64,000 bases of DNA, from assembly GCA_016706425.1 (NCBI GenBank), contig JADJJR010000001.1, forward strand, positions 491,133 to 555,132, read 5' to 3'. The position numbers and the translations under genes are program-made. Below, in pieces: positions 15,325 through 47,990 of the stretch. How positions within the stretch are numbered: position 1 is the first letter of the stretch; every line of letters starts with the position of its first letter. The DNA is from Elusimicrobiota bacterium (GTDB taxonomy: Bacteria > Elusimicrobiota > Elusimicrobia > FEN-1173). The notes below the pieces were generated by a model, which saw only the letters and a list, made by a program, of their open reading frames with translations, was not told the origin of the DNA and ran no database searches.

Positions 15325-18300
15325 TAAAATCATCGCTTTTTCGGCCCACAACAAGTTTCTGGTCCTTCTCCTGACCTTGATCGGGGCCCTGGCGGCCACC
15401 TGGTGCGTCAAGAACGTGCCCCTGGACGCGTTGCCCGATTTGTCGGACACACAGGTCATCGTCTATTCCCAATGGGACCGAAGCCCGGACATCATTGAGG
15501 ACCAGGTCACCTACCCCATCGTGTCCTCCCTTTTGGGCGCCCCCCGGGTGAAGGCGGTGCGCGGGTTCTCGGATTTCGGGTTTTCCTACGTCTACGTGAT
15601 CTTCCAAGACGGGACCGATCTCTATTGGGCGCGGAGCCGCGTGTTGGAATATTTGTCGAAGATCCAGTCGCGCCTGCCCGACGGGGTCAAGACGGAGCTG
15701 GGCCCCGACGCCACCGGCGTGGGGTGGGTGTACCAATACGCCCTCGTCGATAAAACCGGTCGGCACGACCTGGCCCAGCTGCGGGGTTTCCAGGACTGGA
15801 CCCTCCGCTATTGGTTGCAATCGGTGCCGGGCGTGGCCGAGGTGGCGTCCCTGGGGGGCTTTCAAAAACAATACCAGGTGAACGTGAACCCCCACGCCCT
15901 GGCGGCCCACGGGGTGCCGCTCCTGAAGGTCGTCGAGGCCGTGCGCCAGGGCAACAACGATGTCGGGGCCCGGCTGGTGGAATTCGCCGGCGCGGAATAC
16001 ATGGTCCGCGGGCGGGGTTACGCCCGGGGGGTCGCCGACATTGAAAACATCGCGGTGGGGCGGGGCGCGGACGGCACGCCGGTGTTGGTGAAAAATGTCG
16101 CCCGCGTGGTCGTGGGGCCCGACATCCGCCGGGGGGTGGCCGACCTGGACGGTCTGGGGGAAACCGTGGGCGGGATCGTGGTCATGCGCTCGGGGGAAAA
16201 CGCCCTCAACGTGATTGACCGGGTGAAGGCCAAGATCCGGGATGTGAAGGCGTCCCTCCCCGAAGGGATGGAGATCGTTCCCGTCTACGACCGGTCGGAT
16301 CTCATTCACCGGGCCATCGACACCCTCACGCACGAATTGGTCCTGGCCATGATCGTCGTGAGCGTGGTGATCCTCCTGTTCCTCTGGCACATTCCGTCGG
16401 CGCTCGTGCCCATCCTCACCATCCCGGTGAGCGTGTTGCTGGCTTTCATCCCCATGTACGGCTTGGGGCTCACGACCAACATCATGTCCCTGGCCGGCAT
16501 CGCCATCTCCATCGGGGTCCTCGTGGACGGGGCCATCGTCGAGGTGGAAAACGCCTACAAGCGTCTCGAGGAATGGGAGGCCGGAGGACGGAAGGGGGAC
16601 TTTCACGCCGTGCGTTTGGCCGCGCTCCAGGAAGTGGGTCCGTCGGTGTTCTTTTCCCTGCTCGTGATCGCGGTGGCCTTCCTCCCCATCTTCACCTTGG
16701 TGGACCAGGAGGGGCGGCTCTTTAAACCCCTGGCCACCACGAAGAACCTGACGATGTTCCTGGCGGCGGTCCTGGCGATCACTCTCGACCCGGCCATGCG
16801 CATGCTCTTCACGCGCATGAACCCCTGGCGGTTCAAACCGGCCTGGGCCGCCCGGATCGCGAACGCCGTGACGGTCGGGACCTATTACCCGGAGGAGAAA
16901 CACCCCGTCAGCCGGCGCCTCTTCGCCCTTTACGACCCCGTCTGCCGATGGACCCTGCGGCATCCCATGCGCACGCTCGGGGCCGCGCTCCTGTTGATGG
17001 CGGCGACGGCGCCGGTTTTTTTCAAGCTCGGGTCCGAGTTCATGCCGCCCTTGAATGAGGGCGTCCTGCTTTACATGCCGACCACGATGCCGGGGATTTC
17101 CGTCACCGAGGCCCAGCGGCTGCTGCAGACCCAGGACAAAATCCTCAAAAGCTTTCCCGAAGTCGACCGGGTGCTCGGCAAGGCGGGGCGCGCCGAGACC
17201 GCCACGGACCCCGCGCCCTTTTCCATGATGGAGACGACGGTGGTCCTCCAGCCCAAGGGAAAATGGCGAAAGGAATTCGGCGGGGAATTGGATCGGTTGG
17301 TCGCCGCGCTGGACAAGGCCCTCAAGTTGCCCGGGGTGGTCAACGCCTGGACGATGCCGATCAAGGCCCGCATCGACATGCTCACCACCGGCGTTCGCAC
17401 GCCCGTGGGGATCAAGGTGTTCGGCGACGACCTGGGAAAAATCGAAAAAGTGGGGGCCGAACTCGAGCGGTTGCTGCCCGCCGTCCCGGGCACGCGCAGC
17501 GTCTACGCCGAGCGGGCCGCGGGCGGTTACTTCCTCGATGTGGACCTGCGGCGGGACCGGCTGGCCCGTTTCGGGCTCACCGTGGAGGAGGCGCAAAGGG
17601 TGTTGATGTCGGCGGTCGGTGGGGAGACCGTCACGACGACCATCGAGGGCCGCGAACGTTACGGGGTGAGCGTGCGCTACGCCCGGGAATTCCGCGATGA
17701 TTTGCCCAAATTGAAGAGGGTGCTCGTGACCGCGATGTCCGGGGCCCAGGTGCCCCTGGGCCAATTGGCGGAGTTCCGCCTGGTGGCGGGACCCGCCATG
17801 ATCCGCGACGAGGACGGGCAATTGGCGGGCTACGTTTACGTCGATATCGAGGGCCGCGACGTGGGCGGGTACGTCGAGGCCGCGAAGAAACGGGTGGACG
17901 AGGGGCTGTCCTTGCCCCCGGGGATCGCCTTGGTTTGGAGCGGGCAATACGAAAATATGTTGCGGGTGCGACAACGGCTCAAAATCGTGGTCCCCGTGAC
18001 GCTCTTCCTGATTTTCGTCCTGCTCTACATGAACACGGGTTCCGCCGCCAAGACCTGGATCGTTCTGTTGGCCGTGCCGTTTTCCATGGTCGGCGCGGTG
18101 TGGTTGCTTTGGGCGTTGGATTACAACCTGTCCATCGCCGTGGGAGTGGGGCTCATCGCGCTGTTGGGCCTGGACGCCGAAACCGGGGTTTTCATGCTCC
18201 TTTACTTGGACCTTTCGTACGAAGACGCCAAAAAGCGCGGGGGCCTGGGACGCCCCGGCGCTCTGGAGGAGGCCCTCGTGCACGGCGCCGTCAAGCGCAT

Positions 18301-18499
18301 CCGCCCCAAACTCATGACGGTCCTGACGTCCATGGTCGGTCTGTTGCCCATCATGTTCAGTTCCGGCACCGGGGCCGATATGATGAAGCGCGTCGCCGCG
18401 CCGCTCGTCGGTGGCCTCGCGACGAGTTTCGTCCTGGAATTGTTGGTGTACCCGCCGCTTTACCTGCTGTGGAAACGACGCAAAGGAGACAACGCATGA
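15317..18499 (+). CDS. czcA: Heavy-metal efflux RND pump, CusA/CzcA (HME-RND) family
   Basis: 1060 aa with 12 TM helices. The N-terminus MINKIIAFSAHNKFLVLLLTLIGALAATWCVKNVPLDALPDLSDTQVIVYSQW is a hallmark of CusA/CzcA. Confidence 0.9.
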   Translation: MINKIIAFSAHNKFLVLLLTLIGALAATWCVKNVPLDALPDLSDTQVIVYSQWDRSPDIIEDQVTYPIVSSLLGAPRVKAVRGFSDFGFSYVYVIFQDGTDLYWARSRVLEYLSKIQSRLPDGVKTELGPDATGVGWVYQYALVDKTGRHDLAQLRGFQDWTLRYWLQSVPGVAEVASLGGFQKQYQVNVNPHALAAHGVPLLKVVEAVRQGNNDVGARLVEFAGAEYMVRGRGYARGVADIENIAVGRGADGTPVLVKNVARVVVGPDIRRGVADLDGLGETVGGIVVMRSGENALNVIDRVKAKIRDVKASLPEGMEIVPVYDRSDLIHRAIDTLTHELVLAMIVVSVVILLFLWHIPSALVPILTIPVSVLLAFIPMYGLGLTTNIMSLAGIAISIGVLVDGAIVEVENAYKRLEEWEAGGRKGDFHAVRLAALQEVGPSVFFSLLVIAVAFLPIFTLVDQEGRLFKPLATTKNLTMFLAAVLAITLDPAMRMLFTRMNPWRFKPAWAARIANAVTVGTYYPEEKHPVSRRLFALYDPVCRWTLRHPMRTLGAALLLMAATAPVFFKLGSEFMPPLNEGVLLYMPTTMPGISVTEAQRLLQTQDKILKSFPEVDRVLGKAGRAETATDPAPFSMMETTVVLQPKGKWRKEFGGELDRLVAALDKALKLPGVVNAWTMPIKARIDMLTTGVRTPVGIKVFGDDLGKIEKVGAELERLLPAVPGTRSVYAERAAGGYFLDVDLRRDRLARFGLTVEEAQRVLMSAVGGETVTTTIEGRERYGVSVRYAREFRDDLPKLKRVLVTAMSGAQVPLGQLAEFRLVAGPAMIRDEDGQLAGYVYVDIEGRDVGGYVEAAKKRVDEGLSLPPGIALVWSGQYENMLRVRQRLKIVVPVTLFLIFVLLYMNTGSAAKTWIVLLAVPFSMVGAVWLLWALDYNLSIAVGVGLIALLGLDAETGVFMLLYLDLSYEDAKKRGGLGRPGALEEALVHGAVKRIRPKLMTVLTSMVGLLPIMFSSGTGADMMKRVAAPLVGGLATSFVLELLVYPPLYLLWKRRKGDNA

Positions 18500-18837
18500 A
18501 AAAGCGCGTTCTGTGGGGAACGTTGTTGTTGGGGGGGATGACCGCCGTCGCGGCGCCCGTGAAAAAAGCGGCGCCGCTCGCGCCGGGGGAATACGGGGCG
18601 ACGCTCCCCGCCTTCGTCTGCGGCGGGTGCGCCGAATGGGTCCAAAGCCGTCTGGAAAAAGACAAGCGCCTGACGGCCGTGGCCGTCGACCCGATCCCCC
18701 GGGCGTTGCGGTTTCGGGTCAAGCCCGGCCCCGGTGTGACGTCCGCCGAACTTCAAGAGGTCCTCGACGGGGCCGCGACCCAAATGGGCATGGGGGCGGA
18801 TTACACGATGAAGAATTTGAAACCGCGGGGGCGCTGA
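18496..18837 (+). CDS. Small periplasmic HMA-like metal-binding protein (CGGC motif), candidate metallochaperone of the RND system
   Basis: The ATG overlaps the czcA stop (ATGA). The signal peptide is MKKRVLWGTLLLGGMTAVAA. The ferredoxin-like HMA pattern ATLPAFVCGGCAEWVQSRLEKDKRLTAVAVD...ALRFRV follows. The track ORF 17935..18837 is over-extended. Confidence 0.5.
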   Translation: MKKRVLWGTLLLGGMTAVAAPVKKAAPLAPGEYGATLPAFVCGGCAEWVQSRLEKDKRLTAVAVDPIPRALRFRVKPGPGVTSAELQEVLDGAATQMGMGADYTMKNLKPRGR

Positions 18838-18844
18838 GAGGGGG

Positions 18845-19267
18845 TCAGGGCGCCGGTTCGGGGAGCCGGTCCTGATCCTTAAGCCAATCGGTGAACTGGG
18901 TGTCCTGCTCGATGATGTGGTGGGTGATCCAATCCGAGACGAAAAGCGTCAGCTCCGTCGTCAGGATGATCAGCCCTTCGGCGTGCAGCTCGATGAAACG
19001 CTGGACGCGCTCGGCGAAATCGTTGTGGAGCGCGCGGTGGGCCTCGAGTCCGGGATAGCCGGCCGCGCGCATCTGTTTTTCCTCTTCGTGGAAGTGGATG
19101 CGGGTGTAGGAGGCCAAAAACGCCAGGGTTTTCGGGACAACCTCCTTCTCCGCGGGATCCACCAGCGCGTCGTGAAGGGCGTTAAGGCGGCGGAATAATT
19201 CCTGGTGTTGAGCGTCGATGGTCTTGTAACCCGTGGCGAATTTGTCCGACCAGGCGATCAATGGCAT
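18845..19267 (-). CDS. Hemerythrin-like (bacteriohemerythrin) metal-binding protein
   Basis: 140 aa from MPLIAWSDKFATGYKTIDAQHQELF...HFHEEEKQM...HNDF...DWITHHIIEQD. It carries the H/HxxxE/HxxxD iron-ligand pattern of hemerythrin. The true start has an AGGAAA RBS; the first 38 codons of the track ORF are an extension. Confidence 0.8.
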   Translation of the reverse strand: MPLIAWSDKFATGYKTIDAQHQELFRRLNALHDALVDPAEKEVVPKTLAFLASYTRIHFHEEEKQMRAAGYPGLEAHRALHNDFAERVQRFIELHAEGLIILTTELTLFVSDWITHHIIEQDTQFTDWLKDQDRLPEPAP

Positions 19268-22642: not shown

Positions 22643-22715
22643 GCCGAGGTAGCTCAGTCGGTAGAGCACAGGTCTGAAAAACCTGGTGTCGTCAGTTCGA
22701 TTCTGACCCTCGGCA
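22643..22715 (+). tRNA. tRNA-Phe (anticodon GAA)
   Basis: A 73-nt cloverleaf: the acceptor stem GCCGAGG pairs with CCTCGGC. The D-arm is GCTCAGTCGGTAGAGC. The anticodon stem-loop is CAGGT-CTGAAAA-ACCTG with GAA at positions 34-36. The T-arm is GTCAG-TTCGATT-CTGAC and the discriminator is A. There is no encoded CCA. The sequence is near-identical in architecture to canonical bacterial tRNA-Phe. Confidence 0.85.
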
Positions 22716-22725
22716 CATTTTAAAA

Positions 22726-22780: not shown

Positions 22781-23255
22781 GGCTTGGCCCCCGCACGTTT
22801 TTGAATCGGCGTTCCTTTTGCCCCGGCCCCGGTCGGAGGTCTTTCCCTTTTTCGCCAACGCCGAAAATCTTGAGCGCCTGACTCCCCGGGAACTCCGTTT
22901 CAAAATCCTCACCCCCACGCCCATCACGATTCAAACGGGGGCCCTCATCGATTACCGGATACGGCTTTTTGGTTTTCCGCTTCGCTGGCGGACCGGAATC
23001 TCCCTCTGGAACCCGCCTTTTGAATTCGTCGACACCCAATTGAAGGGGCCCTACGCCCAATGGGTCCACCATCATGTGTTCGATGAAAAAGGGCCCCGCG
23101 AAACCCGGATAAGGGACCGCGTGACGTACCGGCTGCCTTTGGATCCCTTGGGACGTGTGGGCCTGCCCTTGGTGCGCCGCGAATTGAAGCGCATTTTCGA
23201 ATTCCGCCGCCGCGCGGTGGCCGATGCCTTCGGGGTCGATGCGCGCCCGTGTTGA
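22779..23255 (+). CDS. SRPBCC-superfamily (polyketide cyclase/dehydrase-like) protein
   Basis: 158 aa with Bet v1-like fold hallmarks. It is co-oriented with, and overlaps, the photolyase gene. Such a small SRPBCC gene is commonly found 5' of phr genes. Confidence 0.55.
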
Positions 23256-24607
23256 AACCCTTTCCCGCCTCGCGACGGGTCCGCGCCCTCAACGCCGCGC
23301 CTCCCGGTCCCGGGCCGGTGGTCTATTGGATGAGTCGTGACCAACGCGTGGCCGCCAATTGGGCCCTGTTGCACGCGCGGGCGCTGGCGGGGGAGCGGGG
23401 CGTGCCCCTGGGGGTCGTCTTTTGCTTGACCGAAAACTTCCCCGGCGCCACCCGCCGGGCCTACGATTTTATGCTGGGCGGCCTGGAGGCGTTGGAGGCG
23501 CGTCTCGCCGCCCTTAAAATCCCGTTTTTCCTTTTGATCGGGGACCCGCCGGCGACGTTGGCCGCCTTTGTCGTCAAAAACAAAATCGGCGCCGTGGTGA
23601 CGGATTTCGATCCCCTTCGAATCAAACGACGATGGAAATCGCGTTTGGCGGAAACCCTTCCTGTGGCCTTCATCGAGGTGGACGCCCACAACGTCGTGCC
23701 CGCTTGGGTGGCGTCCCCCAAACGGGAATACGGGGCCCACACCCTGCGGCCCAAAATCCATAAGTTGTTGGAGGAATTCCTGACGGATTTTCCGCCGTTG
23801 GCGGCGGCGACCGTTCCCTGGACGACGCCGGTTCCCCGGGTGAATTGGGCGCGCGTGAAGGTCGCCCCGCGGGTGGACGAGCGGGTGGGCCCGGTGGCGC
23901 GCTGGACGCCGGGGGAGGCGGCGGGCGCAAAAAAGATGGGGCGGTTCCTGACCGATGGTCTGTCCGCCTACGCGGAACAACGCAACGACCCGACGCGCGC
24001 GGGCCCATCGGATCTGTCGCCCTATTTGCACTTCGGTCAGGTTTCGGCGCAAAAATTGGCTTGGGAGGTTCGCCGCCGGGCGCTCGACACCCCGTCGGGG
24101 GGCGCCTTTCTGGAGGAGTTGATCGTTCGCCGGGAGTTGGCGGACAATTTTTGTTGGTACAACGAGCGCTACGACGCCTTCGAGGGGTTCCCCGATTGGG
24201 CGAAAAAAACCCTCAACGCCCACCGGCGCGACAAGCGGGCTTGGCTCTACACCCGCGCGCAATTTGAAAACGCGGCGACCCACGACGCCCTTTGGAACGC
24301 CGCCCAACGGGAAATGGTCGTCAAGGGGAAAACCCACGGCTATATGCGGATGTACTGGGCGAAGAAAATCTTGGAATGGTCGGAGAGTCCTGAAGAGGCC
24401 CTGGCGACCGCCATTGAGCTCAACGACCGCTACGAACTTGACGGGCGGGACCCCAACGGGTACGCGGGCGTGGCCTGGTCCATCGGCGGCGTCCACGACC
24501 GGCCCTGGTTCGACCGCCCGGTATACGGCCAAATTCGTTACATGAGCGAAGGGGGATGCCGCTCGAAATTCAATGTCGACCGTTACATCGCGACCGTCGA
24601 TGAATAG
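23249..24607 (+). CDS. phr: Class II CPD deoxyribodipyrimidine photolyase
   Basis: 452 aa. [20 protein letters not shown] (N-terminal alpha/beta domain) and C-terminal [15 protein letters not shown]...[17 protein letters not shown] are class II photolyase signatures. Confidence 0.85.
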
Positions 24608-24747
24608 TCCTTTGTTTCTTGGGGCCCCTGTCTGATCCGGTTTCCGAACAGAAGAACCATTGAAAATACCCCCTCCCGGGGGTAGGCTTTAATAGGGGTT
24701 TCCATGGCGGCAACGGTCGGAAAAAACTGTTGGTTTCTGAGGGGATT

Positions 24748-26745
24748 ATGAGCCAGAATCGCGGCGTTTTGGGACAAAAGAATCACGGAGTTACCCTCTT
24801 CGAAGTGGTTATTTCCATGGCCGTGATCGGCATTATGATTATTGTCTTCGTGGGATCGTTGCGTGTCGCCTCGACCAGCATGGTGAAAAGTCGAGAACTC
24901 ATTCGGCGCAGCCGCGTGGCCAAACACACCTACACCCAAGTAAAAGCCATGAATTTTTTTGACCTCTTTTCGTGCGATTCTTCGCTCCCTCAATACGGGT
25001 TTCTCTCCATCGCCGATGGCGGTCTCCATTCCCGGGCGTACAACGGCATTAACGCGACGTCTTTCGCCGATTTTAAGAGCTCCGCTTCCCTGTTGGCCGT
25101 TCAGGCATCGGTGGAAGAAAACGGCTTCGGCCATTTTGATCTGACCGTTGAGCACATGCGCAGAGACAAAACAGCGAGTGTGACGCCCGGCGTCGTCACG
25201 AATTTGGTCCCCTTCGCGGACTCTCTGCTCACCATTGTCCCCATTCCCCCCGCCGCCCTGACCAATTACACGACCGGGGACGGCTACGACGACTTGGACG
25301 CCGGCATCCGATACAATGATTGGAACGGCGACGGTGATTATTACGACAGTTGGTTGGTGTTTTATGTTAATCCGCCCATAGGCGCTCTGCCGCCCGACAC
25401 GTTCGTCGTTCCCCCGGCTTTTATGGGTGTGGGCCCTCAGATTTACGCCTTGCACTCGAAGGACGAGATTCCCGGGGGCAGCGTTTTCCTCAATATAGTG
25501 CCGTCGCGGATCGTCGAGATGCCGGACACGCGCTTGAAACGGGTGACCTTTCGTTTGTGGAACAGGAAGGGGGGGCTGGTGTCGACGGAAGTCTGGTTGA
25601 TCTCCGAAAAGGACATCACCGGGGAAACCACGGACGACATGGAGTCCCCGCTGCTCTTGGACGTCACGAACCCGCTCCCCGGCATTTTCCTCTTTGAAAG
25701 GATGAATCTTCTCCAAATCAACGCCCTGGATCTGCCGATCAACAACAGTTACGCGGCGAGCAATATTTCCGTGCGGGCCGATGCGGGCCAACCTCTGGTT
25801 GTCACGGGGAAAACCGGACCTTTGGCGAACGTTTTCCTCAGCAGCGCGCCCTATTGGACTCCGGGGTTTATCCTTTCTGTCTTGGACAACGGGTCCGCGG
25901 ACGTTTTGGGGGCCTTTTCCATCCCCGCCAACAACATCTCTTTGAACATTGTCGAAGGCACCAACACTCTGGGCGGAATCGCCCAAAACCCCGTCAGCGG
26001 GGCTCTTTCGCCCTTTTGGAAGGTGAACGTCACTTATGACCGCCGGGCTCCGGTTTTTGATCCGGGGGCCGAAATCCCCACCGACAACACCGCGGTCGTA
26101 ACACGAACGCCCTTTGTCGGCGTTCGTTTTTTTGATGACACCGCGTTCACCCCCGCGGTCGCGGGAATCGCGCGCGAAACGGTATGGGTCGGGACCGGTC
26201 CCGCGGCCGTCTCCATCAGCACGACGACGGGGCTGTACATGGACAACTGGGCCGTTTACAGCGACAGCTGGGTGGTTGTGGCCAGCTCCGTGTCGGGATT
26301 GATTGAGCCGCTTCCGAACGGGGCCTGGGTTTATGTCAAGGCGGAAGGCGGGGACCGGGCCGGGTACAAGGCCGACAAGTCCTGGAGGTTTTTTGTCAAC
26401 AGCAACCCGGCCGATGTAACACCGCCGGACATTGACACCATCAACATCGCGCCCGGATATCCAACGGAGATCTCCTGCCACATCTACGACAATCAATCCG
26501 GCGTGGACTGGCGGACGGTGGATTTGACGGTGCGCGATTCGGCGCTGAATGTGAAAGCACGGGTCAACAGGGTGTCCACCCCGCGCATGGCCGATTATTT
26601 CAACCCGATGACGGTGCCCAACGGGGGGGTCCTGGTCTTTCGGTCAACGGAGCCCTGGAGCGCCGGGAATTACACGGCGACGATCTCCGCGGAAAATTTT
26701 AACGGGATCAGTTTCAGCGTCTCCCCGGGTTTTGTGGTGCCATAA
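24748..26745 (+). CDS. Large (about 665 aa) prepilin-type protein: class III (type IV pilin-like) signal peptide followed by a long beta-rich domain
   Basis: The N-terminus MSQNRGVLGQKNHG|VTLFEVVISMAVIGIMIIVFVG has Gly at -1, Glu at +5 and a hydrophobic helix (prepilin peptidase motif). The remainder is Thr, Ser, Asn and Val-rich. The ATG at 24748 is preferred over the upstream TTG of the track ORF. Confidence 0.6.
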   Translation: MSQNRGVLGQKNHGVTLFEVVISMAVIGIMIIVFVGSLRVASTSMVKSRELIRRSRVAKHTYTQVKAMNFFDLFSCDSSLPQYGFLSIADGGLHSRAYNGINATSFADFKSSASLLAVQASVEENGFGHFDLTVEHMRRDKTASVTPGVVTNLVPFADSLLTIVPIPPAALTNYTTGDGYDDLDAGIRYNDWNGDGDYYDSWLVFYVNPPIGALPPDTFVVPPAFMGVGPQIYALHSKDEIPGGSVFLNIVPSRIVEMPDTRLKRVTFRLWNRKGGLVSTEVWLISEKDITGETTDDMESPLLLDVTNPLPGIFLFERMNLLQINALDLPINNSYAASNISVRADAGQPLVVTGKTGPLANVFLSSAPYWTPGFILSVLDNGSADVLGAFSIPANNISLNIVEGTNTLGGIAQNPVSGALSPFWKVNVTYDRRAPVFDPGAEIPTDNTAVVTRTPFVGVRFFDDTAFTPAVAGIARETVWVGTGPAAVSISTTTGLYMDNWAVYSDSWVVVASSVSGLIEPLPNGAWVYVKAEGGDRAGYKADKSWRFFVNSNPADVTPPDIDTINIAPGYPTEISCHIYDNQSGVDWRTVDLTVRDSALNVKARVNRVSTPRMADYFNPMTVPNGGVLVFRSTEPWSAGNYTATISAENFNGISFSVSPGFVVP

Positions 26746-26757
26746 AAGGAGCGACGA

Positions 26758-27558
26758 TTGAAACCGACCAACCGAGGCGTCACTTTGGTGGAATTGACAA
26801 TCGTATCCGCCCTCGTCGCCGTATTGGCCGTTTTCGCCGGTCGGATCCTCACCGGGGGCACGCGGACCACGGTGCGGTGGACCTTGAGCGCCGACGCCAT
26901 GGAAAAAACCCAGGTGGCCTTAACCAAAATTGAATTTGACCTGGAGGAAATGACGGTGGTGTCTTCCAGCACCCCCCGGTTCCTTGAATTTCAATTGGAT
27001 TCGAACCGATTGCCCGGGTATAACCCAACCGGGGACTTCGACGCCGACGGATTGACCAACGAATTCGACGTGGACGACGACGCCGATATGATCGGGGTGG
27101 GGGGCGTTCCCATCCCCGCCACCGACATGAACGGGAACGACCTCTGGGACCAAGACGACGACAACGATGGGAACATCGATGTCCAATGCCGTTATTACAT
27201 CGACGCGAACCAAAATTTGGTTCGGGATTTCAATTACCAGGAATCGGGATGGGGCAACAACGTTGAAATTCTGTTGGATTCAATTTCCGGTTCCATTTTC
27301 AAATATTTTGGATCCGTCAACCAAATTCCCGGGCCCAGCGCGGACAGCAATCGAGACAACATCGTGACCTGGCAGGAAATCGATCAAAACCCCGCGACCG
27401 GCAACAGCAACGGAGTGATCGACACCACCGCGGAGCGGCTTTACATCAATTCAATCAGCGTCCACTTGGTTATAGATAAAAACAACGACACGCTCCCCGA
27501 TTTTTCGACGGAGCTTCGGATTCGTCCGCCGTTGTTGATGGTCAACCGGAGGGTGTGA
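26758..27558 (+). CDS. Prepilin-type (pseudopilin-like) protein with Asp-rich calcium-binding-type repeats
   Basis: The N-terminus MKPTNRG|VTLVELTIVSALVAVLAVFAG is a class III signal. Repeated DxDxDG-like motifs occur (DFDADGLTNEFDVDDDADMIGVGG...DLWDQDDDNDGNIDV). AAGGAG precedes a TTG start. Confidence 0.6.
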   Translation: MKPTNRGVTLVELTIVSALVAVLAVFAGRILTGGTRTTVRWTLSADAMEKTQVALTKIEFDLEEMTVVSSSTPRFLEFQLDSNRLPGYNPTGDFDADGLTNEFDVDDDADMIGVGGVPIPATDMNGNDLWDQDDDNDGNIDVQCRYYIDANQNLVRDFNYQESGWGNNVEILLDSISGSIFKYFGSVNQIPGPSADSNRDNIVTWQEIDQNPATGNSNGVIDTTAERLYINSISVHLVIDKNNDTLPDFSTELRIRPPLLMVNRRV

Positions 27559-28913
27559 TGAGGAAATTCCAGGTAAAGGGTTTCGCCCTGGGAATGGTCG
27601 CCCTGTTTATGCTGTTCCTCATCCCCATGGCCTTCACTTTGATTCAGCGCACCGTTCGTTTAAACCGGACGGTCTGGCGGGAGCAGGCCTCCGGCGTGGG
27701 TCGCCGTTTGGCCAGCGAGGTCATGGTGGACTACATGAGCCAATTCTCCAAAGGGTCCGGGTACTATGAAGACCACTTCAGCGCCTCGAGTTTGGCCCGG
27801 ACGGCCTCGATTTTCTCGGCCGGGGGCTCGACGGCCACCGTGATCCCGAACCCGGCGGCGCGGACAATTCTGATCCGCGCCCAAGGGAAGGCGAGGACAA
27901 CGGGCCAATCCACCCCGGAAAAAAACATCGAGGCGCTGATCCGTTTCATCCCCCTGGTGGGACAATTTGCCTTTGAGTTTCCCTTTAATTTTACGGACAA
28001 CGTTCCCGGGGATGTTTACGACGGTCCGGTCCGGGTGGGCATGAATTTTAATGTCGCCGGGGCGAACATTATTTTCAATCAGCCCGTGCTGGTGGGGCAA
28101 AACTTGAACGCGCGGATGGACACTCGATTCAATTCCCAGGTGTATCACGGCGGGACCCTCAACCCCGCGTACACCCCCGTGGTCTACACGGCCGGAGTTC
28201 CGATCCCCGATGTCTCTCCGACAAAATATTTCTCCATCGATCCCGTCTACTACGCCAACATATGCACGACGAGCTCCTTGGTCACGACCTGGTGGGAGTT
28301 TCAGGACAACGCGGGCGTGGGGGAATTCCGGTCCACCATGGATCAAAACGGGGATTTTAATATTGATGGGGCCGATGGGCTCCCAGGGCCTTGGACCCCC
28401 GTTCCCGCGTCCGGCGGCGTGTTTTTCACGTGGAACGTGAAAACCTTCGTGTCGGGCACCGTTCGGGGGAGAGTGACCATCGTTTCGGGATGCAGCGGGG
28501 GGGCCCCCAACGACGGTGTGCGCGGGGCCATCGAGGTTGTCGGGGCGTTTGGGTATCCCGGGGCCCAACTTTACGCCAACCCGCAGAGTTCTATTTTTCT
28601 CCTTGCGGGTCGACGGTTCATCTTGGACATCGTGGTGAATGGTCCGACAACCATGGCGGGGGCTTTCTATGTGGAAAACCCGATTTACAACAGCCCGGAA
28701 TGCGGGGGGGGGGGCGACGCCAGCCTTATAAGAAGGCGGGGGGTGGGGGCTGTGGGGGGCGACCAAATCAATATTTACGGTTCTTGGAACAACTCAGGCT
28801 CATGCGAGGCCTTTAATTGGAGGGTTTTCCACGATCCCAGTTTAACCCTTTATCCCGCTCCCGGCGTCCCCGAATACCCGGCCCTCATGAGCTGGCGGCG
28901 TTACAGGAATTAG
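27558..28913 (+). CDS. PilX-like N-terminal hydrophobic-helix protein (minor pilin or pilus assembly-like), third gene of the pilin-like operon
   Basis: GGAGG RBS. MMRKFQVKGFALGMVALFMLFLIPMAFTLIQ resembles PilX N-terminal domains. The 451-aa beta-rich body carries a Gly-rich stretch. It overlaps the previous gene's stop. Confidence 0.45.
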   Translation: MRKFQVKGFALGMVALFMLFLIPMAFTLIQRTVRLNRTVWREQASGVGRRLASEVMVDYMSQFSKGSGYYEDHFSASSLARTASIFSAGGSTATVIPNPAARTILIRAQGKARTTGQSTPEKNIEALIRFIPLVGQFAFEFPFNFTDNVPGDVYDGPVRVGMNFNVAGANIIFNQPVLVGQNLNARMDTRFNSQVYHGGTLNPAYTPVVYTAGVPIPDVSPTKYFSIDPVYYANICTTSSLVTTWWEFQDNAGVGEFRSTMDQNGDFNIDGADGLPGPWTPVPASGGVFFTWNVKTFVSGTVRGRVTIVSGCSGGAPNDGVRGAIEVVGAFGYPGAQLYANPQSSIFLLAGRRFILDIVVNGPTTMAGAFYVENPIYNSPECGGGGDASLIRRRGVGAVGGDQINIYGSWNNSGSCEAFNWRVFHDPSLTLYPAPGVPEYPALMSWRRYRN

Positions 28914-29191
28914 ATCGGCCGAATCGCCCGTCGGGGATCTCCACCGGTCGACGCTTTCCCTGTGTTTAATCGCCCAGAATCGGTTCACGGCGCTCCCCCT
29001 TTGGCTTGGGTTAGAGCCCGGATTTTTCAATAGAACGCGGGATTCGACGAACGACGTCGGACATTTTCTTCCTCAAAAAGCTCGTCCGATGTCCCTGTGA
29101 CCGCGCTAGCGGAAGTGCCGTAGGGGAACGGCCGTCGACCTCGCTTTTTTCGTCGAAAATGCCACAGCCTCGTTCGTCTCGGTCCACACGC

Positions 29192-29692
29192 CTATTGCAA
29201 AGTCCGGGTTAGAACGCTCCGGGGAATTTGGGTTTCCCGGGCGGGTCGCAACCAGCGCGGCGGGGGCCGACGGGTCCAGGTGGCGAACCCCAATTTTTCT
29301 CCCCGGTAAAAAGCGCGATAGGCGGCCACCGCGTCCCCCGGGACCCGGTATTTTTCGGGCATGGCCTGGGCGAAGGGCGTCAATCCGCGCCGCGGGAAAC
29401 GCGCCCCGGCGATGGCCTTTAACACCGCGATGGATTTGTGATCGGTGCTTTTAGGATATCGGTGCCGGTATTCCTCGTTCAGCGCCAGGGCCAAGGACCG
29501 CAACCAACAAAAGTTGTCGTGGGATTCACCCGCCCAGAGCACGCAGGGGTGGTTGACGTGGGTGGAACGGTAGGGGGTTTTGAATCCCTTCCCATTGAGG
29601 ACGGTGCAGAGAATCTGCACGCTCTCCAAGATCATCTTGATCACGTGCTGGTCGCAGTGGGCGCGCGCGCAGCGGGCAATGGCGCGATCCAA
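29192..29692 (-). CDS. Candidate pyrimidine-dimer DNA glycosylase (T4 endonuclease V / DenV-like, Pyr_excise family)
   Basis: 166 aa. The N-terminus ...RAHCDQHVIKMILESVQIL... and HVNHPCVLWAGESHDNFCWLRSLALALNEEYRHRYPKS parallel T4 endoV (..ADQHLMAEYRELPRV.., ..HVTFFYDKLEFLRKRQIEL..). This is weak, motif-level similarity only. Confidence 0.4.
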   Translation of the reverse strand: MDRAIARCARAHCDQHVIKMILESVQILCTVLNGKGFKTPYRSTHVNHPCVLWAGESHDNFCWLRSLALALNEEYRHRYPKSTDHKSIAVLKAIAGARFPRRGLTPFAQAMPEKYRVPGDAVAAYRAFYRGEKLGFATWTRRPPPRWLRPARETQIPRSVLTRTLQ

Positions 29693-29718: not shown

Positions 29719-32700
29719 TTAGGCTTGGGTGAGGAGGGTCCGGAGGTTCTCGATTTCCCGGGCGATGGCCGCGGACAGCCGGGCCACACCGATGATAACA
29801 AAACCCTCGAGCGGGACGACCGCCTCGTCGTTGCGCGCGATGACGCGCGAACCCCGACCGATGGGGTTCTCGGCGCCCGCGGCGTTCCAGCGGTCAATCC
29901 AATCCACCAACGCCGTGAGCACCAACCGACCCGCGCCGTCCGCCAGGCCCGGGGCTTCGCCGGGGGTGACGAAACGGACGCGCGCGCCACGCCGCGCCGC
30001 TTCGGTCCAAAGGTCCCCCAGGGGGCCCGGTCGGTCCGCCGGCACCACCAGCGTCGTCCCCGGTTGGAGGGCGCCGACGAGGCCGGAGAGATAACGCCGG
30101 GTTCGATCCCGTTCTTCCGCTTCCCAGGAGTCAAACCCCAAGAGGTTCACGTGCAGAGTGGTTTCATTGCGCCTCTCCGCTTCCCGCGCGGCGGCGGCGC
30201 CGGTTTCCCGCAGGGCCGACCCTTCCAGGGCCGCCGCGGTCACCCGGCCGTCGAGAATCGCCCGGGCGGTGGGCGCGTCCGCCGCCAAAAGGCGGACGGT
30301 GGGGACAAATCCTTCTTCCAGTTGATCATCGGAAGCCCCGACGACGCGCCGGCGCAGGTCCTCCAGACCGGTGGCCCCCCAATAATTGTCCCCGTTCTTA
30401 AAGACGGCGGGGGGCACGTCGAAACGGACGGGCCCGGCCTCGCCCAAAAGCAAGGATCGCAACAGCGCCGCGCGCGCGGCGCTGTCGTCCGTCAGTCGGC
30501 CGGTCCCGCGCCGCAGGAAAACGACGCCTCCCAGCATGGCCAAAGCCGTGGCGGGCGTCCCCGGGGCCTCGGACACCCGTTGCGGTTTGACGTCCACCAC
30601 GATTTCCGCCCCGCTGTAGGGCACCCGGAAACGGACTTCGTACCGCCCCCCGCCCAGATTTTTCGAACTCAGATAGACAACGCCCGGGTAACGCCGCTGT
30701 TCGGCCAGGCGAACGGCCGCCCGCAGGGGGGCCGTGAGCAGGTCCACCTCCTTGGGGGAGAGGACGTGGGGAGCCGCGGTAATACTTCCATCGAGAAAAC
30801 GGTGGGCCATCCAGCGTTGTGCGTTGATTTGATTTTGGTCGTAGGCGATCCGAACCACGGACAAACCCGCGTAAAACTCCATGGCGCGGGCGGTGTCTTC
30901 AAGCGCCATGCCCTCGTCCTGGGTGGGTGTGATTTTCTTGGAGCGGAGCCGCTCGCTCCGTTCCAAATGGGACAGTTCGTGAACCAGGGCCACAAACACA
31001 TACGCCGGTTGAGCGTCCGCCCCCCCGATGTAAATAACAGAACGTCCGTTTCTTAATTCGGCCGCGGCCGCGGCCTCCGGCCCTTTCGGCGCCACGACGA
31101 TGTGGGGGCGCGTCTTTTCCAGGACGTGGCGAAAACGTCCCTTTTCGAATCTCCCCAAATGTTCGATGGTGGAGGCCAGGACGGAGGCGCTGGTGGCGTC
31201 GTTCGCGTTCCTCAGGAGGGCCGCGAGGTCGGTCCCGGCCGGAAGCGACCTGGCCAACTCCTTTTTTAAAGCCGGAGCAATTTTTTGCGTCACCAGGGCT
31301 TCGTTGAGGGACCAGGCCGGGGGGGGCGTCCCTTGGGCAACGACCAAAAGGGGAAGAACGAACAACGCCGCGGCCAGCATCAATGGAGCGACGGCGCGCG
31401 CCAACGGGCCGCCCAGCCGGGGCATGTTCTCGATAACGTTTCGTGCGGCCCGGGACCAACGACGCATCCCGGCCAACACCGCCCCCGCCGGTGGAATGGC
31501 GGGGGGGATCGTTGCCTCCGCGGTGGGGACCCGACGCGGCGCCCGGGCGATCGTCTCGCTGAGCGCCATCCGGACCGAAACGATTTGGGGAACCAGCCGG
31601 GCGCGGGTTTCAGGGCCCGCGTCCGTTCCCGCCATCTTCCAGGACAGGGCCAAACTCATTTCAAGGCCGACAGCGGCGGGCGCGCCCAGGGAGAGGGCCC
31701 GCGCCGCCGCGGAGGCGTGGGCGGCGGTGACTTTTTCACGAATCTCCTCTCGAAGCTTCGCGATCAATTCGGCGCGCGACTCCTCCGGGGAGCGGTCGGG
31801 GCGGTCGGCCAGGCCCGCCAGTTCCGCGGGTGCGAAATGCAACAACACATAGTCCGCCACGGCATCCAGACTTCCCAGATGGATGTTCTCCGAACGGAGG
31901 GATTCGCCAATTCCCCAGGCGACTTCCACCTGGGTCACCAGGGGCTCCCCGGAGGGAAACCGCAGGGTTTCCCCTCCAAAAAAAGCCTGTTCCTCCCGGG
32001 GCGATAAACCGACGCCGCGGGGGTAGCCCTCGCGGGTCCCACGCCACCACATCTTGAAGAAGAAGGGCCACGCCGCCCACGCGGGGATGTTGACCAGCAA
32101 TTTTTCGGCGGAGGGATCGTGCATGACACCCCCGGTGATTTTGTCCCTCAACAGAGCCGCGAGGCGAACGGGGAACCGATCGGGGGTGTTCGCGCCCCGC
32201 GCTTCCCCCGGAAGGCGCAGCCAACCCTCGTTGTTCAGAAAAGTCAGAGCGTAGCCCAAATCTTTTCCCAGGGGCACGCCCAGCCAACGGCGCGCGGCCA
32301 ACCGGAGTCGAATCGCCCGAACGGCCGCGCGGGGGAAAGGGATTTCAATCAACACATTTTCGCCGTCGCCGTAGGTCATGAGGGACGGCGGCACGTCGAA
32401 CAATCCCTCCTCTTGCCATTTCTCGGCCAGACGGCCGCTTTGCCCGTTCAAGGCCCGGTCCATGGAGGACAACGACCCCAGCGGGGCGGGGGTCGCGTCG
32501 GGCATGGCTTCGAGGGCCCCCAGGGTGAGGTCGGGGGCGATGGCCAAGGCCTCGCGGCCCCCGGCGGGGACGGCCGGGGGGCGGCGGTTTATCCAGCCAT
32601 ACAATGTCGCGGCAAACCGGCTCATTCGCGTGGGTTCCACGGCCGGGGACGGCCCGGCCGGATCGCCAAAGCCGGTGCGGGTGTGGGCGAAGAAGGTGGA

Positions 32701-35700
32701 CGGGTCCTCGTAACCGGCCCGGTGTTTTTCATACCGGGTTTTCAATCGGTGGGGGGTGTCGAAGAGCCAGTGAATTCCATTGCCCAAGAACGTCCCCAAT
32801 CCCAGGGCCCCTCGAATGGGGGCGCGCCATAAAGCGTTGAACGCATGGGGCAGAGCGCGCCTCGCCCAACGGGCCGCGACGACGGCCGTTAACGCCCACG
32901 GAAGGGGGGACCCAATTTGGTGTGGAGCGGGTGGGCCCGCCGGCGGGGTCGCCGGCGAGTCGCCAAAGTCCGCCACGCTTTCCCAATGGATCTGGGAATC
33001 CAAGAAGGTTGTGTCCGATGGGGGGCGGGGTTTTTGCCGCGCCCACCGCGCCACGATCGCGCCGGCCAACCCCAATCCTGTCACCGCCATCAAAATCGGG
33101 TTGGTCAGGCGGAAAGTCGCCGCTGCCAGGCCGCCTGTTTCAGAAACGGGGGCGACCGCGAGGGAGCCGACCGACGGGACCAAGGGAACCGCCGCGCCCG
33201 CCGCGGCGGTTTCAACGGCCGCCGGCGCCCCCTCGATCGCCGCGCGCAGGAAGATTTCCTGGCCGGGGAAGATCAAATTGGGATCGACCAAACCGTTTAA
33301 GCGGGCCACGTCCATCACGCGGGCGACGAGTTCCGCGTTGTTGCCCCCCTCCGCGAATTGGAGGATGCGCCACAGGGAATCGCCCTGTTCGACGAGAGCT
33401 TTCAGACCGCCTCCTTCCAACGGGATCAGAGTGGCGGCGCCGGCGACGTCAACGGGCGCCAAAAACAGGGCGGTCAGGAGGAGGGCGCCTAAAGCGACGC
33501 CCCAAAGGCTCCCTCGCCGCGTCGGCAAAGGATCGAAAACGGTGGCCTCCCGGGTCTCGGCAAAGTCCCGCCGGGCGGGGGTCAGAGTGCCGTTGGTGGA
33601 AAAATCATGGATGATGATGTCGTTGCCGTCGCGAACCACCTCAAAGTGGAGCCGGGACACCCCCCCCAACATCGCGGGGGCGAGGCCCAGGCGACGTTCC
33701 ATCACCCCCCGACCCATCACAAGGGGGCGTTGACCGTCCCCTCCCGTCGGCGCGTCGCGGCGCGCCCCGTTGGGCGCGAGGAGGAAAAGCGCTCCGTTCG
33801 TCGGATCGATGTCGAGTACGAAAGTCGGGCCGGCGACCACGGGAACCGGCAAATCCGATATGGGCAATCGCGAGACGCGGCGCTCGCTGTTTCGCAAAAG
33901 ACGGACGGTTTGGGTCGCATGGCCCCAGGCTTCAACGACCCGGGTCTCATAAAGCGTGGGGTCGGCTGTGGTTTTGAAAGCGTTCCGCAACCGGACCACC
34001 CCGGGTTTGAGGGCCTCCGGGCTCAGGGGTTCCCGGGCCAAATCGAGGAGGGCCGCGGTCAAATGGTCCTGGGCGGGGACGGTGGGGGGACGCGGGGTCT
34101 CGAGGCCGGGGTTCGCCGGGGCCCGCCGGTCCTGAAAAAGCGCGTTCGGGGAAGGCGCAAGCACGGTGGGCTCGAAGGATGGCCCCACGGGGGGCCGGGC
34201 CCCATCGGGGGAGGGCGATCCCGCGAATGGGTTCCATCGCGTTTCTTCCACGCCCTCCATCAACCAACGGAAAAAGGCGGACCCCCGCAACGCCGCGGGC
34301 AGCGGACGCGCCCCAAACCAGGTCGTGACGGGGGCCGCCAACCAGGTCACCAAGAGAAAAATCACCAAAGGGGTAAAGGAGATGTTGTACGCCCAGAAGG
34401 CGACGATCCAAGCGGTTGCGGCCAATGCGACGATGCCGGTGGATCGAAAAGCGTCCGCGAGCGTGAGCCCCCGGGAGGCCCTTTCGGCCTCGGATTGAAC
34501 TTTCCAGGTCAATCGGTTTCCAAGGATTCGAGCCGTTGCTCGGAAAGCGCGCAAGGGCCCGAAAACGATTTCCGGGAAATACATGAAGGGGGATGTCACT
34601 ATTTCCATCCCGCCGATCAAGAGGTCCCGGGCCGCGTTGGTCCCCGCCCGAGCGGCGGTTGACCGGTCGCCCGCCCACAACGCTCGAAGCGCGTCGATCG
34701 CGGAGCGGGCGGGCTGGTACAGTTTGGGCAAGAGAACCAACCCCACCCCGACGATCAAGAACGAAGCCCACATTAAAACGGGGTTGGAGTGCACGATCGG
34801 GGAGCCGGGAAAAGCCGACAGCATTGTCATGGATGTCCAGACAATGAAAAGGGGCGCTTGCACGAAAATGCGCGTGGAGTAATGGGCGATATAAAGCGCC
34901 TCAAAAGAGAAAGGAACGACCTCCTTGGACCACGACCAACTCCAGGGCGCCTTTTGCCCCGCGGTGCGGGCGGTTCCGCGAGCGAAGAGGTCGAACAGGC
35001 GCCCGAAAATCCCCGGCGATAAGTAGGCGGCGTTCAACAGGTCGCCGACGGTCCATCGAAGGGCCTGTTCTTGTCGACTGATCGGGTTGGCCGGGGTGTC
35101 CTCGTAGAACGCAACATCTCCGGTGTACGCCGGGTTGAGAAACAGAGCTTCAATCGTGTCGTGGCTGAGCAGGGCGGGGGGCAAAACCTCCCGGGGGGAG
35201 GCGGGGGTCCCGACAAATTGGTCCAAAAAGGTTTCGTTGCGGGCGAGTCCTTTGCCGTAGGCCCCTCCCCGCCCGAGAAGTTGAAACTGGGTTTCCGGGA
35301 TGCGGGACATCCACCGGTGGGTCAGGGTGCTGCGGAATTGGGTCCACGTTTCGAGGCGGGCCGGAAGAAGGCCGGGTTGAATGAACCCACGGTCCGGGTT
35401 GGCGGCGCCGATTTCAACCAAACGGCGAATTGTTCCCGGTGGCGCTCGGTTGTCGGCGTCCATTAAAATGCTGAAGACAACGGGACGGGGGTTTTCCCCG
35501 AACGAGGAGCGCCCTTCCCGCAGGCCGGCAATGTCCGCGGCCATTCGTTGGTCCAACGCGTCGATTTCGGGGTCGTTGGGGCCGGGGGGCGGTTCAATGT
35601 TGCCGCGCGCGCCGAACGTCGGTTTCTCCGCGCTGCGATCGCCCCGGTCCAAATAGTTGATCGGGCGTTCTTGGCCCCGCGTCGCCAACGCCATGAAATC

Positions 35701-39735: not shown

Positions 39736-39857
39736 TCCTAATAGCTTAATGACCCTAGGCGAATGTCGCATTAAGTGGATGTAAATTGCTTGTAACAGTG
39801 AGCCGGCGGGGAAATCGGAAAAATTTCGTGTATGATTCCCTGGAAAGGAGGAAATCA

Positions 39858-40229
39858 ATGCTTTGGCGATTGGCGGCCGATGGGGTCGCCCTCATTCACG
39901 GTTTGTGGGTGCTGGCGGTGGTCCTGGGACCCTTTTGGGCTTTGCGGCGACCGGTGGGTCGGACCTGGGTGGTGACTCTCTTGCTCGCGACGGCTTTTTT
40001 TTGGGCGTTTTATTGCCCTCTGACCGTCCTTGAAAATTTCCTCCGTTCAAATTACGATCCCGCCGGGGTGTACACCGAGGGTTTCCTGGCCCGTTACGTG
40101 CGGCCCTGCGCCGACGCCCGCCGCTGCGGTCCCGCCCTGGCGTGGGGGGTTCGTTTGTGGGCGGGCCTGTGGGTGGTCGTGTACGCTTTTTTGTGGGGGC
40201 GGGAACGCCGCCGAGCGTTGCGGAATTAA
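39858..40229 (+). CDS. DUF2784-like small membrane protein, divergent from the giant minus-strand gene
   Basis: A strong RBS GGAAAGGAGGAAATCAATG precedes it. 123 aa from MLWRLAADGVALIHGLWVLAVVLGPFW... with 3-4 TM helices. Confidence 0.55.
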   Translation: MLWRLAADGVALIHGLWVLAVVLGPFWALRRPVGRTWVVTLLLATAFFWAFYCPLTVLENFLRSNYDPAGVYTEGFLARYVRPCADARRCGPALAWGVRLWAGLWVVVYAFLWGRERRRALRN

Positions 40230-47777: not shown

Positions 47778-47990
47778 ATGGGAAACACCACGATCGAAAA
47801 TACCTCTTGCAAAGAACCCCAAATCGCTTATCTTTGGATCAACGGTCCTCGACGGCGAATCCATCCGGTGGACGCCGACCTGCCCCTTCCGTTGGGGCGC
47901 GGCGTCGGCGGGAGCGGGATCTGTCGCCTTTGTGAAAAATTATTGACACCTTTTTATGCGGACAAACGAGACAAAAACCAAGTCCATTAA
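47778..47990 (+). CDS. Speculative small ORF (70 aa) with a strong Shine-Dalgarno, immediately upstream of and overlapping the start of the giant plus-strand gene
   Basis: AGGAGG lies 6 nt before the ATG. The product is MGNTTIENTSCKEPQIAYLWINGPRRRIHPVDADLPLPLGRGVGGSGICRLCEKLLTPFYADKRDKNQVH. It lies in a lower-GC intergenic region, has no homolog recognised and could be non-coding. Confidence 0.2.
   Translation: MGNTTIENTSCKEPQIAYLWINGPRRRIHPVDADLPLPLGRGVGGSGICRLCEKLLTPFYADKRDKNQVH

Follow-up and report, generated by a model that had tools for sequence, protein, structure and literature searches.

What are three consecutive pilin-like genes doing in the lowest-GC stretch of a GC-rich piece of an Elusimicrobia chromosome: do they form a recently acquired island, or a long-standing cassette of the lineage with a function of its own? 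Here we address this question in a stretch of 64,000 nucleotides from the Elusimicrobiota bacterium assembly GCA_016706425.1 (contig JADJJR010000001.1, positions 491,133 to 555,132), called the window below, with positions counted from its first letter. Between a class II photolyase gene and a DenV-like gene, the region 24608-29191 carries on the + strand three translationally coupled genes, designated P1, P2 and P3. On the whole, our analysis shows that this triad is conserved and vertically inherited in Elusimicrobia, with no sign of recent import, and we consider it probable that the three-gene operon encodes the tip or priming (minor-pilin) complex of a type IV filament, either a type IV pilus (T4P) or a related pseudopilus of a type II secretion system (T2SS) or of competence, in a free-living Elusimicrobia bacterium. 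The features of the locus are as follows.

24608..24747, + strand: intergenic leader from the photolyase stop to the start of P1, with a Shine-Dalgarno-like GAGGGG 4 nt 5' of the ATG
24748-26745, + strand: P1, a modular pilin-like protein of 665 aa from its ATG
24748..24789, + strand: class III leader of P1 (aa 1-14), with predicted prepilin-peptidase cleavage after Gly14
25267..25347, + strand: Asp/Asn-rich loops of P1 (aa 174-200, YTTGDGYDDLDAGIRYNDWNGDGDYYD), a candidate Ca2+ site
26080..26742, + strand: C-terminal tandem immunoglobulin (Ig)-like domains of P1, BIg/cadherin-like (about aa 445-665), predicted from an AlphaFold2 (AF2) model, profiles and Foldseek
26758-27558, + strand: P2, 266 aa, beginning at a TTG that follows AAGGAG and lies 12 nt past the P1 stop
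27034..27180, + strand: first loop block of P2 (aa 93-141), with DFDADG, DVDDDAD and DQDDDNDGNID
27343..27507, + strand: second loop block of P2 (aa 196-250), with DSNRDNIVTWQEID (also given as DSNRDNIVTWQE), GNSNGVIDTTAE and DKNNDTLPDF
27558..28913, + strand: P3, 451 aa, whose ATG overlaps the P2 TGA by 1 nt; an in-frame GTG at 27555 would give 452 aa
27972..28874, + strand: predicted beta-solenoid of P3 (about aa 140-440, some 300 residues), including the conserved loop RS..D.NGDF at aa 259-268
28914..29191, no strand: convergent intergenic region between P3 and the DenV-like gene, with weak terminator-like hairpins at 29003-29061

In the leader 24608..24747, no sigma-70 promoter could be recognised convincingly. 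The first two proteins carry class III (prepilin) signals. P1 opens with MSQNRGVLGQKNHG/VTLFEV, the slash marking the predicted cleavage site (mature start VTLFEVVISMAVIGIMIIVFVG, in longer form VTLFEVVISMAVIG), and continues into a hydrophobic alpha-1 helix at aa 15-67; P2 opens with MKPTNRG/VTLVEL, a 7-aa leader followed by the mature start VTLVELTIVSALVAVLAVFAG (longer form VTLVELTIVSALVA) and the alpha-1 helix. When the 64 kb are scanned in six frames for the motif G-x-[TS]-L-x-E with a hydrophobic stretch, these two N-termini are the only ones found. At the level of the families the motif is well kept. In P1, G14 and E19 do not vary among close relatives, and the wider set of 49 relatives keeps E19 to at least 90% and has the consensus GFxLVE; one distant member reads NAG/FTLIE. 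The P2 family alignment keeps G/x-T-L-x-E, with T+2 and E+5 (E12 of P2) near-invariant. The Pfam profile N_methyl matches 28 of the 49 P1 relatives and 15 of 17 P2 relatives, with best E-values of 1.7e-8 and 7.4e-7. For the proteins of the window themselves, N_methyl gives 20.9 bits for P1 and 20.8 bits for P2 with a cut-off of 21.2, and TIGR02532, with a cut-off of 16.3, gives 14.3 and 21.6, and is passed by P2 alone. An earlier note, made from the sequence alone, had described three consecutive proteins with class III signals, the third by its PilX-like helix, and for the first two this holds at the family level, Gly-1 and Glu+5 being invariant or nearly so. Between P1 and P2 the similarity is confined to the N-terminus, and between P1 and P3 there is none.

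Behind its alpha-1 helix, P2 contains six Asp/Asn-rich loops of EF-hand or DxDxDG-like type, distributed over the two blocks listed above and including DDDNDG and further D/N-x-D/N-x-D/N loops, and the composition of the protein reaches 10.9% Asp and 8.6% Asn. The invariant or near-invariant residues of the family are D95, D106, D108, D110, D131, D133, D141, D196, D200, E207, D209, N216, E226, D240, N242 and D244. Since nearly every invariant column is an Asp, Asn, Gly or Glu belonging to one of the six loops, we read the loops as the functional core of P2. The DxDxDG-type repeats seen in the earlier note are thus real, and are the most conserved columns of the family. In profile searches against PDB, P2 matches the alpha-1 helices of solved pilins (Geopilin at E 2.6e-4, MshA and PilA), and its residues 195-250 weakly match the EF-hands of CDPK (E 0.011); the matches of the family to EF-hand hidden Markov models are also weak (E 0.17-0.2). 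Calcium-dependent adhesion through loops of this type, as had been suggested, is plausible from the motifs. In pilins, the more frequent role of Ca2+ sites is to keep the fold stable or to control the dynamics of the filament.

P1 is indeed unusually large for a pilin-like protein, as had been noticed, and its parts differ in character. At aa 174-200 there is a conserved block DxxDDxDP...DxNxDGDY, in which D181 and D195 are at least 90% conserved in the 49 relatives and DWNGDG fits the DxDxDG pattern; from these motifs it may be a further metal site. The middle of the protein, about aa 70-440 (some 370 aa), has no domain assigned. The AF2 model, built from 4 sequences, has a predicted local distance difference test (pLDDT) score of 39.7 and is usable only in the N-terminal helix and the C-terminal sandwich domains, and with it Foldseek retrieves the tandem Ig domains of SiiE and cadherin (E ~2e-4 to 1e-3). 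Against PDB sequences, the 4-sequence profile of P1 gave nothing meaningful and the 49-sequence profile matches both the alpha-1 helices of solved pilins and the BIg domains of SiiE. In addition, a few P1 relatives carry Big_5, Big_6 or Big_13.

P3 starts differently, with MRKFQVKG/FALGMVALFMLFLIPM, which has Met at +5 and lacks Glu5. Its KGFALGMVALF mirrors QRGVALLIVLM of E. coli GspK, which also lacks Glu5, and the family alignment keeps the pattern (K/R)G-F/I/V-A-L followed by a hydrophobic helix of GspK/PilX type, which bears out the PilX-like helix reported for the third gene. Neither P3 nor its 8-member family has any sequence match in Pfam, NCBIfam or PDB, including PilX_N and ComZ. The AF2 model of P3, built from 8 sequences (pLDDT 75, predicted template modelling score 0.71), is assigned by DSSP a helix at 9-65 (57 residues), a three-stranded sheet at 93-131, short periodic strands at 140-425 and a last strand at 443-451; the solenoid is thus inserted before the last strand in the model, with the insertion point taken from DSSP alone. 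A Foldseek search of PDB with this model yields one significant match, Thermus ComZ (6qvi, E 1.9e-6, probability 1.0), followed by an ice-binding beta-solenoid at E 0.22 and then by tapirin, all the others being at E >= 0.2. We regard the match of the modelled P3 to ComZ as good, not definitive. The NCBI ortholog of P3, IPN65_04605 (419 aa, 99% identity), has been given a start further downstream in its annotation and is without the conserved N-terminal hydrophobic helix, so this start is probably a mis-call.

We then present the distribution of the triad. The closest database proteins come from Elusimicrobia metagenome-assembled genomes (MAGs), among them IPN65_04605, and from metagenomes, and every named homologue of the triad is from Elusimicrobia. 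Word-indexed searches gave few homologues, namely 4 clusters of P1, 17 of P2 and 8 of P3. When the P1 alignment was used in an exhaustive HMMER search, 138 cluster representatives (50% identity) were obtained at E <= 1e-3, 45 of them at E <= 1e-30 and most of the 138 having 550-720 aa; the three named P1 relatives are all Elusimicrobiota, and some are annotated as prepilin-type. Scanning genome contigs and metagenome contigs with the P2 alignment gave only one locus each. From gene-context look-ups, the order P1-P2-P3 is found in seven housekeeping contexts on Elusimicrobia-type contigs, down to ~31-40% identity, with 554-698 aa for the P1 family, 258-295 aa for the P2 family and 413-470 aa for the P3 family; profiles bear out the assignment of the first and third genes to their families. 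The contexts, with L numbers for the related loci, are as follows.

Photolyase, triad, DenV-like gene, giant gene: the window and L006 (86% identity, same site)
Giant gene, DUF2784, triad, Omp85, YebC, RuvCAB: L003-5 (60% identity)
UvrC, MGMT, NTP-transferase, triad: L001, L002, L012
Four other contexts: L009, L010, L013-15, L016

The triad has therefore been relocated during the evolution of Elusimicrobia. The nonsynonymous-to-synonymous divergence ratio (dN/dS) is 0.19-0.28 for P1, ~0.12 for P2 and 0.13-0.19 for P3, and these values of 0.12-0.28 show that all three are functional genes. One MAG, GCA_016714745.1, carries two paralogous triads (L009 and L012); in L009 the third gene is split into open reading frames (ORFs) of 203 aa and 229 aa, both of which match the P3 profile, and the split stems from a frameshift or pseudogene or else from an error of assembly. 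Besides, L001 contains at 14465-19004 (- strand) another triad, analogous to the first without being related to it, of 871, 167 and 476 aa and convergent to P1-P2-P3, whose first two genes open with RG/LTLVE and SG/LTLIE and whose 476-aa third gene has a PilX/GspK-like N-terminus and no match to the P3 profile.

With these results the function of the triad can be discussed. The order pilin, pilin and K/X-like protein last, with the 12-nt gap and the 1-nt overlap, fits an operon of the I-J-K or V-W-X type, and the occurrence of the triad as a fixed unit in seven contexts under purifying selection supports the reading as a tip complex. In its favour are also the class III signals kept in the P1 and P2 families, the profile matches of both to alpha-1 helices of solved pilins and of E. 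coli pseudopilins, the GspK-like N-terminus and ComZ-like model of P3, and the prepilin-type annotation of named P1 relatives. As we propose it, P1 and P2 would enter the inner membrane by their class III signals; a prepilin peptidase, itself encoded elsewhere, would cut them behind the conserved Gly, and P3, the Glu5-less equivalent of GspK, PilX or ComZ, would join them through the hydrophobic alpha-1 helices. The trimer of P1, P2 and P3 would then nucleate filament assembly and ride at the tip, since the bulky beta-solenoid of P3 is expected to fit only at the apex, as argued for Thermus ComZ and cyanobacterial PilX. There P1 could display its Ig-like arm and P2 its Asp-loop domain to bind a surface, polysaccharide or DNA, with Ca2+ in the DxDxDG-type loops stiffening the exposed domains. 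For the presence of pilus machinery in Elusimicrobia the literature offers only indirect support, with Tad systems reported in Elusimicrobia, and PilD and pilins in Endomicrobium; the Méheust preprint makes no mention of pili.

Several results weigh against this assignment. Neither the window nor ~260 kb of related loci showed a pilus ATPase, platform, secretin, prepilin peptidase or major pilin; tblastn found no homologues of E. coli GspC/D/E/F/G/L/M/O in them either, and the main ORFs of the window contain no Pfam domains of pilus machinery. The statement of the earlier note that the window has no pilus ATPase, platform or secretin is thereby confirmed. The N_methyl scores of P1 and P2 in the window lie marginally under the Pfam cut-off, and the model of P1 is poor. 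The link from P3 to ComZ is structural only, from a model of 8 sequences, with a global TM-score of 0.25; a low value is expected, because the N-terminal helix is missing from the crystal and the domain orientations differ. Although the alpha-1 helices of P1 and P2 align by hhalign with those of E. coli GspG/H/I/J and PpdB at 70-92%, the comparison with E. coli GspG/H/I/J/K and PpdA/B/C/YgdB extends over no more than 15-82 residues at the N-terminus and prefers no subclass, the scores for G, H, I, J and PpdB being similar, and judged from their sequences P1 and P2 are not callable as PilV/GspI or PilW/GspJ. Finally, there are only three proteins compared with four in the canonical core sets, with no GspH/FimU-like gene recognised. 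As for the missing machinery, minor-pilin operons apart from it are normal, for example E. coli ppdAB-ygdB-ppdC and the cyanobacterial sets, so the detachment of the triad is not unusual.

Comparison with known systems shows which parts of the proposed tip complex have precedents. The nearest is ComZ of Thermus thermophilus (6QVI), which has a GspK-like pilin fold with a ~380-residue beta-solenoid inserted before the last strand, has an ice-binding protein as its closest structural relative, is not detected by PilFind, is sterically restricted to the pilus tip, and binds PilA2 and DNA (PMC6561018). P3 shares with ComZ the hydrophobic N-terminal helix, the small pilin sheet, the large beta-solenoid and the last strand; both escape sequence-based pilin detection, and both are encoded last after smaller pilin genes. 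However, the two have no detectable sequence similarity and P3 is shorter (451 aa), and unlike ComZ with PilA1-3, P3 has two partners rather than three, one of them a 665-aa modular pilin, and no adjacent major pilin gene. In cyanobacteria, all PilX carry a solenoid and are proposed to be a tip plug replacing PilY1, and the minor-pilin sets are often unlinked from the machinery (bioRxiv 10.64898/2026.02.12.705559). Compared by description, cyanobacterial PilX(Com/EPS) resembles P3 in a pilin fold interrupted by a triangular, ice-binding-like beta-solenoid and in the proposed role as tip plug or primer, but the cyanobacterial sets consist of FimT, PilV, PilW and PilX, and the Elusimicrobia triad has three genes and belongs to another phylum.

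Further precedents are the T2SS tip trimer GspI-GspJ-GspK and PilV-PilW-PilX of type IVa pili, which like the triad consist of three co-transcribed pilin-like genes, the last without Glu5 and starting (R/K)G-x-A-L. GspK and other pseudopilins bind Ca2+. In contrast to these sets, the triad has hhalign similarity to them only over the N-terminal 30-50 residues, its proteins are 2-5 times larger, and there are neither a GspH/FimU partner nor adjacent gsp or pil genes. P1 can be compared with S. sanguinis PilB/PilC, CofB of enterotoxigenic E. coli (ETEC) and V. cholerae TcpB, in which adhesin-type beta-domains are likewise grafted on a pilin N-terminus; CofB, for example, carries beta-repeat and beta-sandwich domains behind its pilin domain and is an initiator of assembly (PMC6561018). 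P1 has no sequence relation to them, however, and its modules are SiiE/cadherin-like Ig domains and the region of ~370 aa without an assigned domain. The E. coli ppdA-ppdB-ygdB-ppdC operon is also a stand-alone minor-pilin operon far from the machinery, lying beside the DNA-repair gene recC, but it encodes four small proteins (107-187 aa) with no solenoid, Ig or Asp-loop modules.

Among the other explanations, one is that the triad forms a T2SS-like pseudopilus tip, an analogue of GspI/J/K serving secretion rather than an extended pilus, whose substrates might be the neighbouring giant glycosyltransferase-containing proteins. The giant gene of the window is the following.

29719-39858, - strand: giant ORF of 3379 aa, with a GT2 domain at aa 840-983 and a sub-threshold LysM

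It adjoins the triad in the window and L006, lies on the opposite side of the triad in L003-5, and is absent from the remaining five triad contexts. A role in secretion would agree with this adjacency in two arrangements, with the GspK-like N-terminus of P3, with the pilin domain of ComZ being closest to GspK and with a weak N-terminal match of P2 to TIGR01711 (gspJ, E 0.014), and there is a precedent in Omnitrophota, where giant genes are reported beside T2SS/T4P-like systems and genes with class III signal peptides (bioRxiv 10.1101/2023.11.21.568195). Yet no giant gene is near the triad in five of the seven contexts, tblastn finds no GspD/E/F nearby, the gspJ match covers only the N-terminus that is shared in any case, and large Ig-like and solenoid modules suit surface display better than a periplasmic piston. 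We therefore take the pseudopilus tip to be unlikely.

A bolder extension of the tip-complex reading is that the triad serves as the DNA receptor at the tip of a competence pilus, specific to Elusimicrobia, with P3 as functional analogue of ComZ and with the placement near repair genes reflecting co-regulated uptake and processing, or else that its three proteins, with the 665-aa Ig-armed pilin and the six-loop Ca2+ pilin, are a new priming-complex architecture that replaces the four pilins plus PilY1. In 4 of 7 independent contexts, genes of DNA repair or recombination lie a few genes away from the triad at most, a post hoc count for which a rough binomial estimate gives p ~0.01.

Window: photolyase and DenV-like gene
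L001/L012, ~7100-8800: UvrC and MGMT
L016, 11473-17804: AddAB-like UvrD/PDDEXK
L003, 17222-19364: RuvCAB

Together with the resemblance to ComZ, these neighbours make a role in a competence pilus possible, and we hold this extension as a speculation with a small chance of being right.

It is also conceivable that there is no filament at all, and that the three proteins form a surface complex whose class III signal serves just for export or anchoring, as in the archaeal bindosome and in many prepilin-motif proteins of the Planctomycetes-Verrucomicrobia-Chlamydiae (PVC) group and its relatives. The absence of linked machinery in the window and related loci agrees with it, as do the sizes of 665 and 451 aa, far above ordinary pilins, and the several triads per genome which, with unrelated analogous triads such as that of 871/167/476 aa in L001, resemble expanded families. 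Against this, the invariant Glu5 of P1 and P2 is a hallmark of filament subunit packing, pilus-associated proteins are the only ones known to have the ComZ-like architecture predicted for P3, and a complex built on a helical bundle is suggested by three partners with complementary N-termini being strictly inherited together. We judge a non-filament complex to be improbable.

The last explanation is that of the earlier note, a low-GC island, possibly horizontally acquired, with orphan minor pilins. Its starting point is correct. The window has a G+C content of 64.5%, with 57.2% (0.572) in 24608-29191 and 65.1% (0.651) in the remaining window, and the sliding-window calculation gives this region as the minimum over all 4584-bp windows, 0.3% of the windows being equally low. 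The AT-rich run quoted for the region is present at 28353-28369 as GATTTTAATATTGATGG, one mismatch from the quoted string, and codes for the conserved D-F-N-I-D-G loop of P3; that such runs are rare elsewhere did not hold, AT-rich 17-mers being just ~2.6-fold enriched in the region. The origin of the dip can be seen by recoding P1-P3 with the codon usage of the window, which predicts a G+C content of 0.575-0.614. The amino-acid effect is accordingly -0.04 to -0.08 (~60-70% of the deficit), and the remaining ~-0.03 comes from a weaker bias at third codon positions (GC3), which is the part that an origin by transfer could claim. The same is seen in the relatives. In the three measured, the triad lies 5-8 points under its left flank (0.576 vs 0.65; 0.597 vs 0.64-0.66; 0.51 vs 0.57), and its GC3 tracks the host, with ~0.73 in the 65%-GC genomes and ~0.50-0.55 in the 57%-GC genome. 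With respect to the relative of 86% identity, where the region is at the same site, the synonymous divergence (dS) of the triad is 0.26-0.28 and that of the neighbouring photolyase and M48 genes 0.31-0.33, which are comparable, showing that the triad diverged together with its flanks. We conclude that the low G+C content is an intrinsic, long-standing property of the cassette, due to secreted proteins rich in N, D, T, S and I and to a weaker codon bias.

Two observations on location could still speak for an island, namely that the triad sits at different genomic places in relatives and so has moved, and that a tRNA gene lies upstream.

22643-22716, + strand: tRNA-Phe(GAA), the sole tRNA in the window, 2 kb upstream of the triad

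Between the tRNA and the triad lie the SRPBCC and photolyase genes, whose GC is normal, and looking near 29.2 kb for an att-like repeat of the tRNA 3' end gave nothing. The ORFs of the window include no integrase or transposase, and the repeats at the flanks, direct or inverted, do not exceed what chance would give; the look for flanking integrase or tRNA signatures that the earlier note had recommended gave no sign of an island. With a conserved triad confined to Elusimicrobia among named homologues, host-tracking GC3, flank-like dS, a dip that is mostly due to amino-acid composition and no integrase or repeats, horizontal acquisition of the island is very improbable, and recent transfer is largely refuted.

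Apart from the triad, the neighbourhood is an ordinary chromosome as judged by Pfam and NCBIfam on the ORFs of the window.

Upstream: RND efflux genes, DsbA-like gene, M48 peptidase, tRNA-Phe, SRPBCC protein, class II photolyase (23249-24607)
Downstream: DenV-like gene (29192-29692; Pyr_excise, sub-threshold), the 3379-aa GT2 gene (- strand), Omp85, YebC, RuvA, RuvB, SpoIID, QueA
47947-63999, + strand: open frame of at least 5351 aa, running past the window end, with Glyco_transf_5, GT1 and UDPGP-like domains

For this last frame, the ortholog in L004 has a called length of 9179 aa. At 56-64 kb, the long ORFs of the minus strand are shadow ORFs, including one that coincidentally has 665 aa; a set of 665, 292, 291 and 449 aa at 56-62 kb, considered as a paralogous cassette, was rejected since these are R/G/P-rich shadow ORFs inside the frame of at least 5351 aa on the + strand. 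A 637-aa minus-strand ORF over P1 was likewise rejected as a shadow ORF, of a kind common in high-GC DNA. In addition, 317-3505 (+ strand) encodes a 1062-aa surface protein with CARDB, Big_7 and fn3 domains and a sub-threshold Por_Secre_tail, the C-terminal sorting domain of the type IX secretion system (T9SS), and a weak match to PorV is found in the related locus L010.

What is already known, then, are minor pilins, including a solenoid subunit of ComZ/PilX type, a modular pilin and calcium loops. What is new is the combination of three genes only, with an Ig-armed first pilin of 550-720 aa and a six-loop second pilin, of which the literature searched has no description. The families of the triad are apparently Elusimicrobia-specific and without names, the best annotation being 'prepilin-type N-terminal cleavage/methylation domain-containing protein'. 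For the study of genome composition, the triad exemplifies a local GC dip that stems from protein composition and weak codon bias, not from horizontal transfer. Elusimicrobia are almost wholly uncultivated and their cell-surface biology is little known; the triad, with a ComZ-like beta-solenoid, a calcium-loop subunit and an Ig-armed giant pilin, gives candidates for particle attachment or DNA uptake in this group, and as a conserved minor-pilin triad it would extend the 'solenoid tip plug' of Thermus ComZ and cyanobacterial PilX to another phylum.

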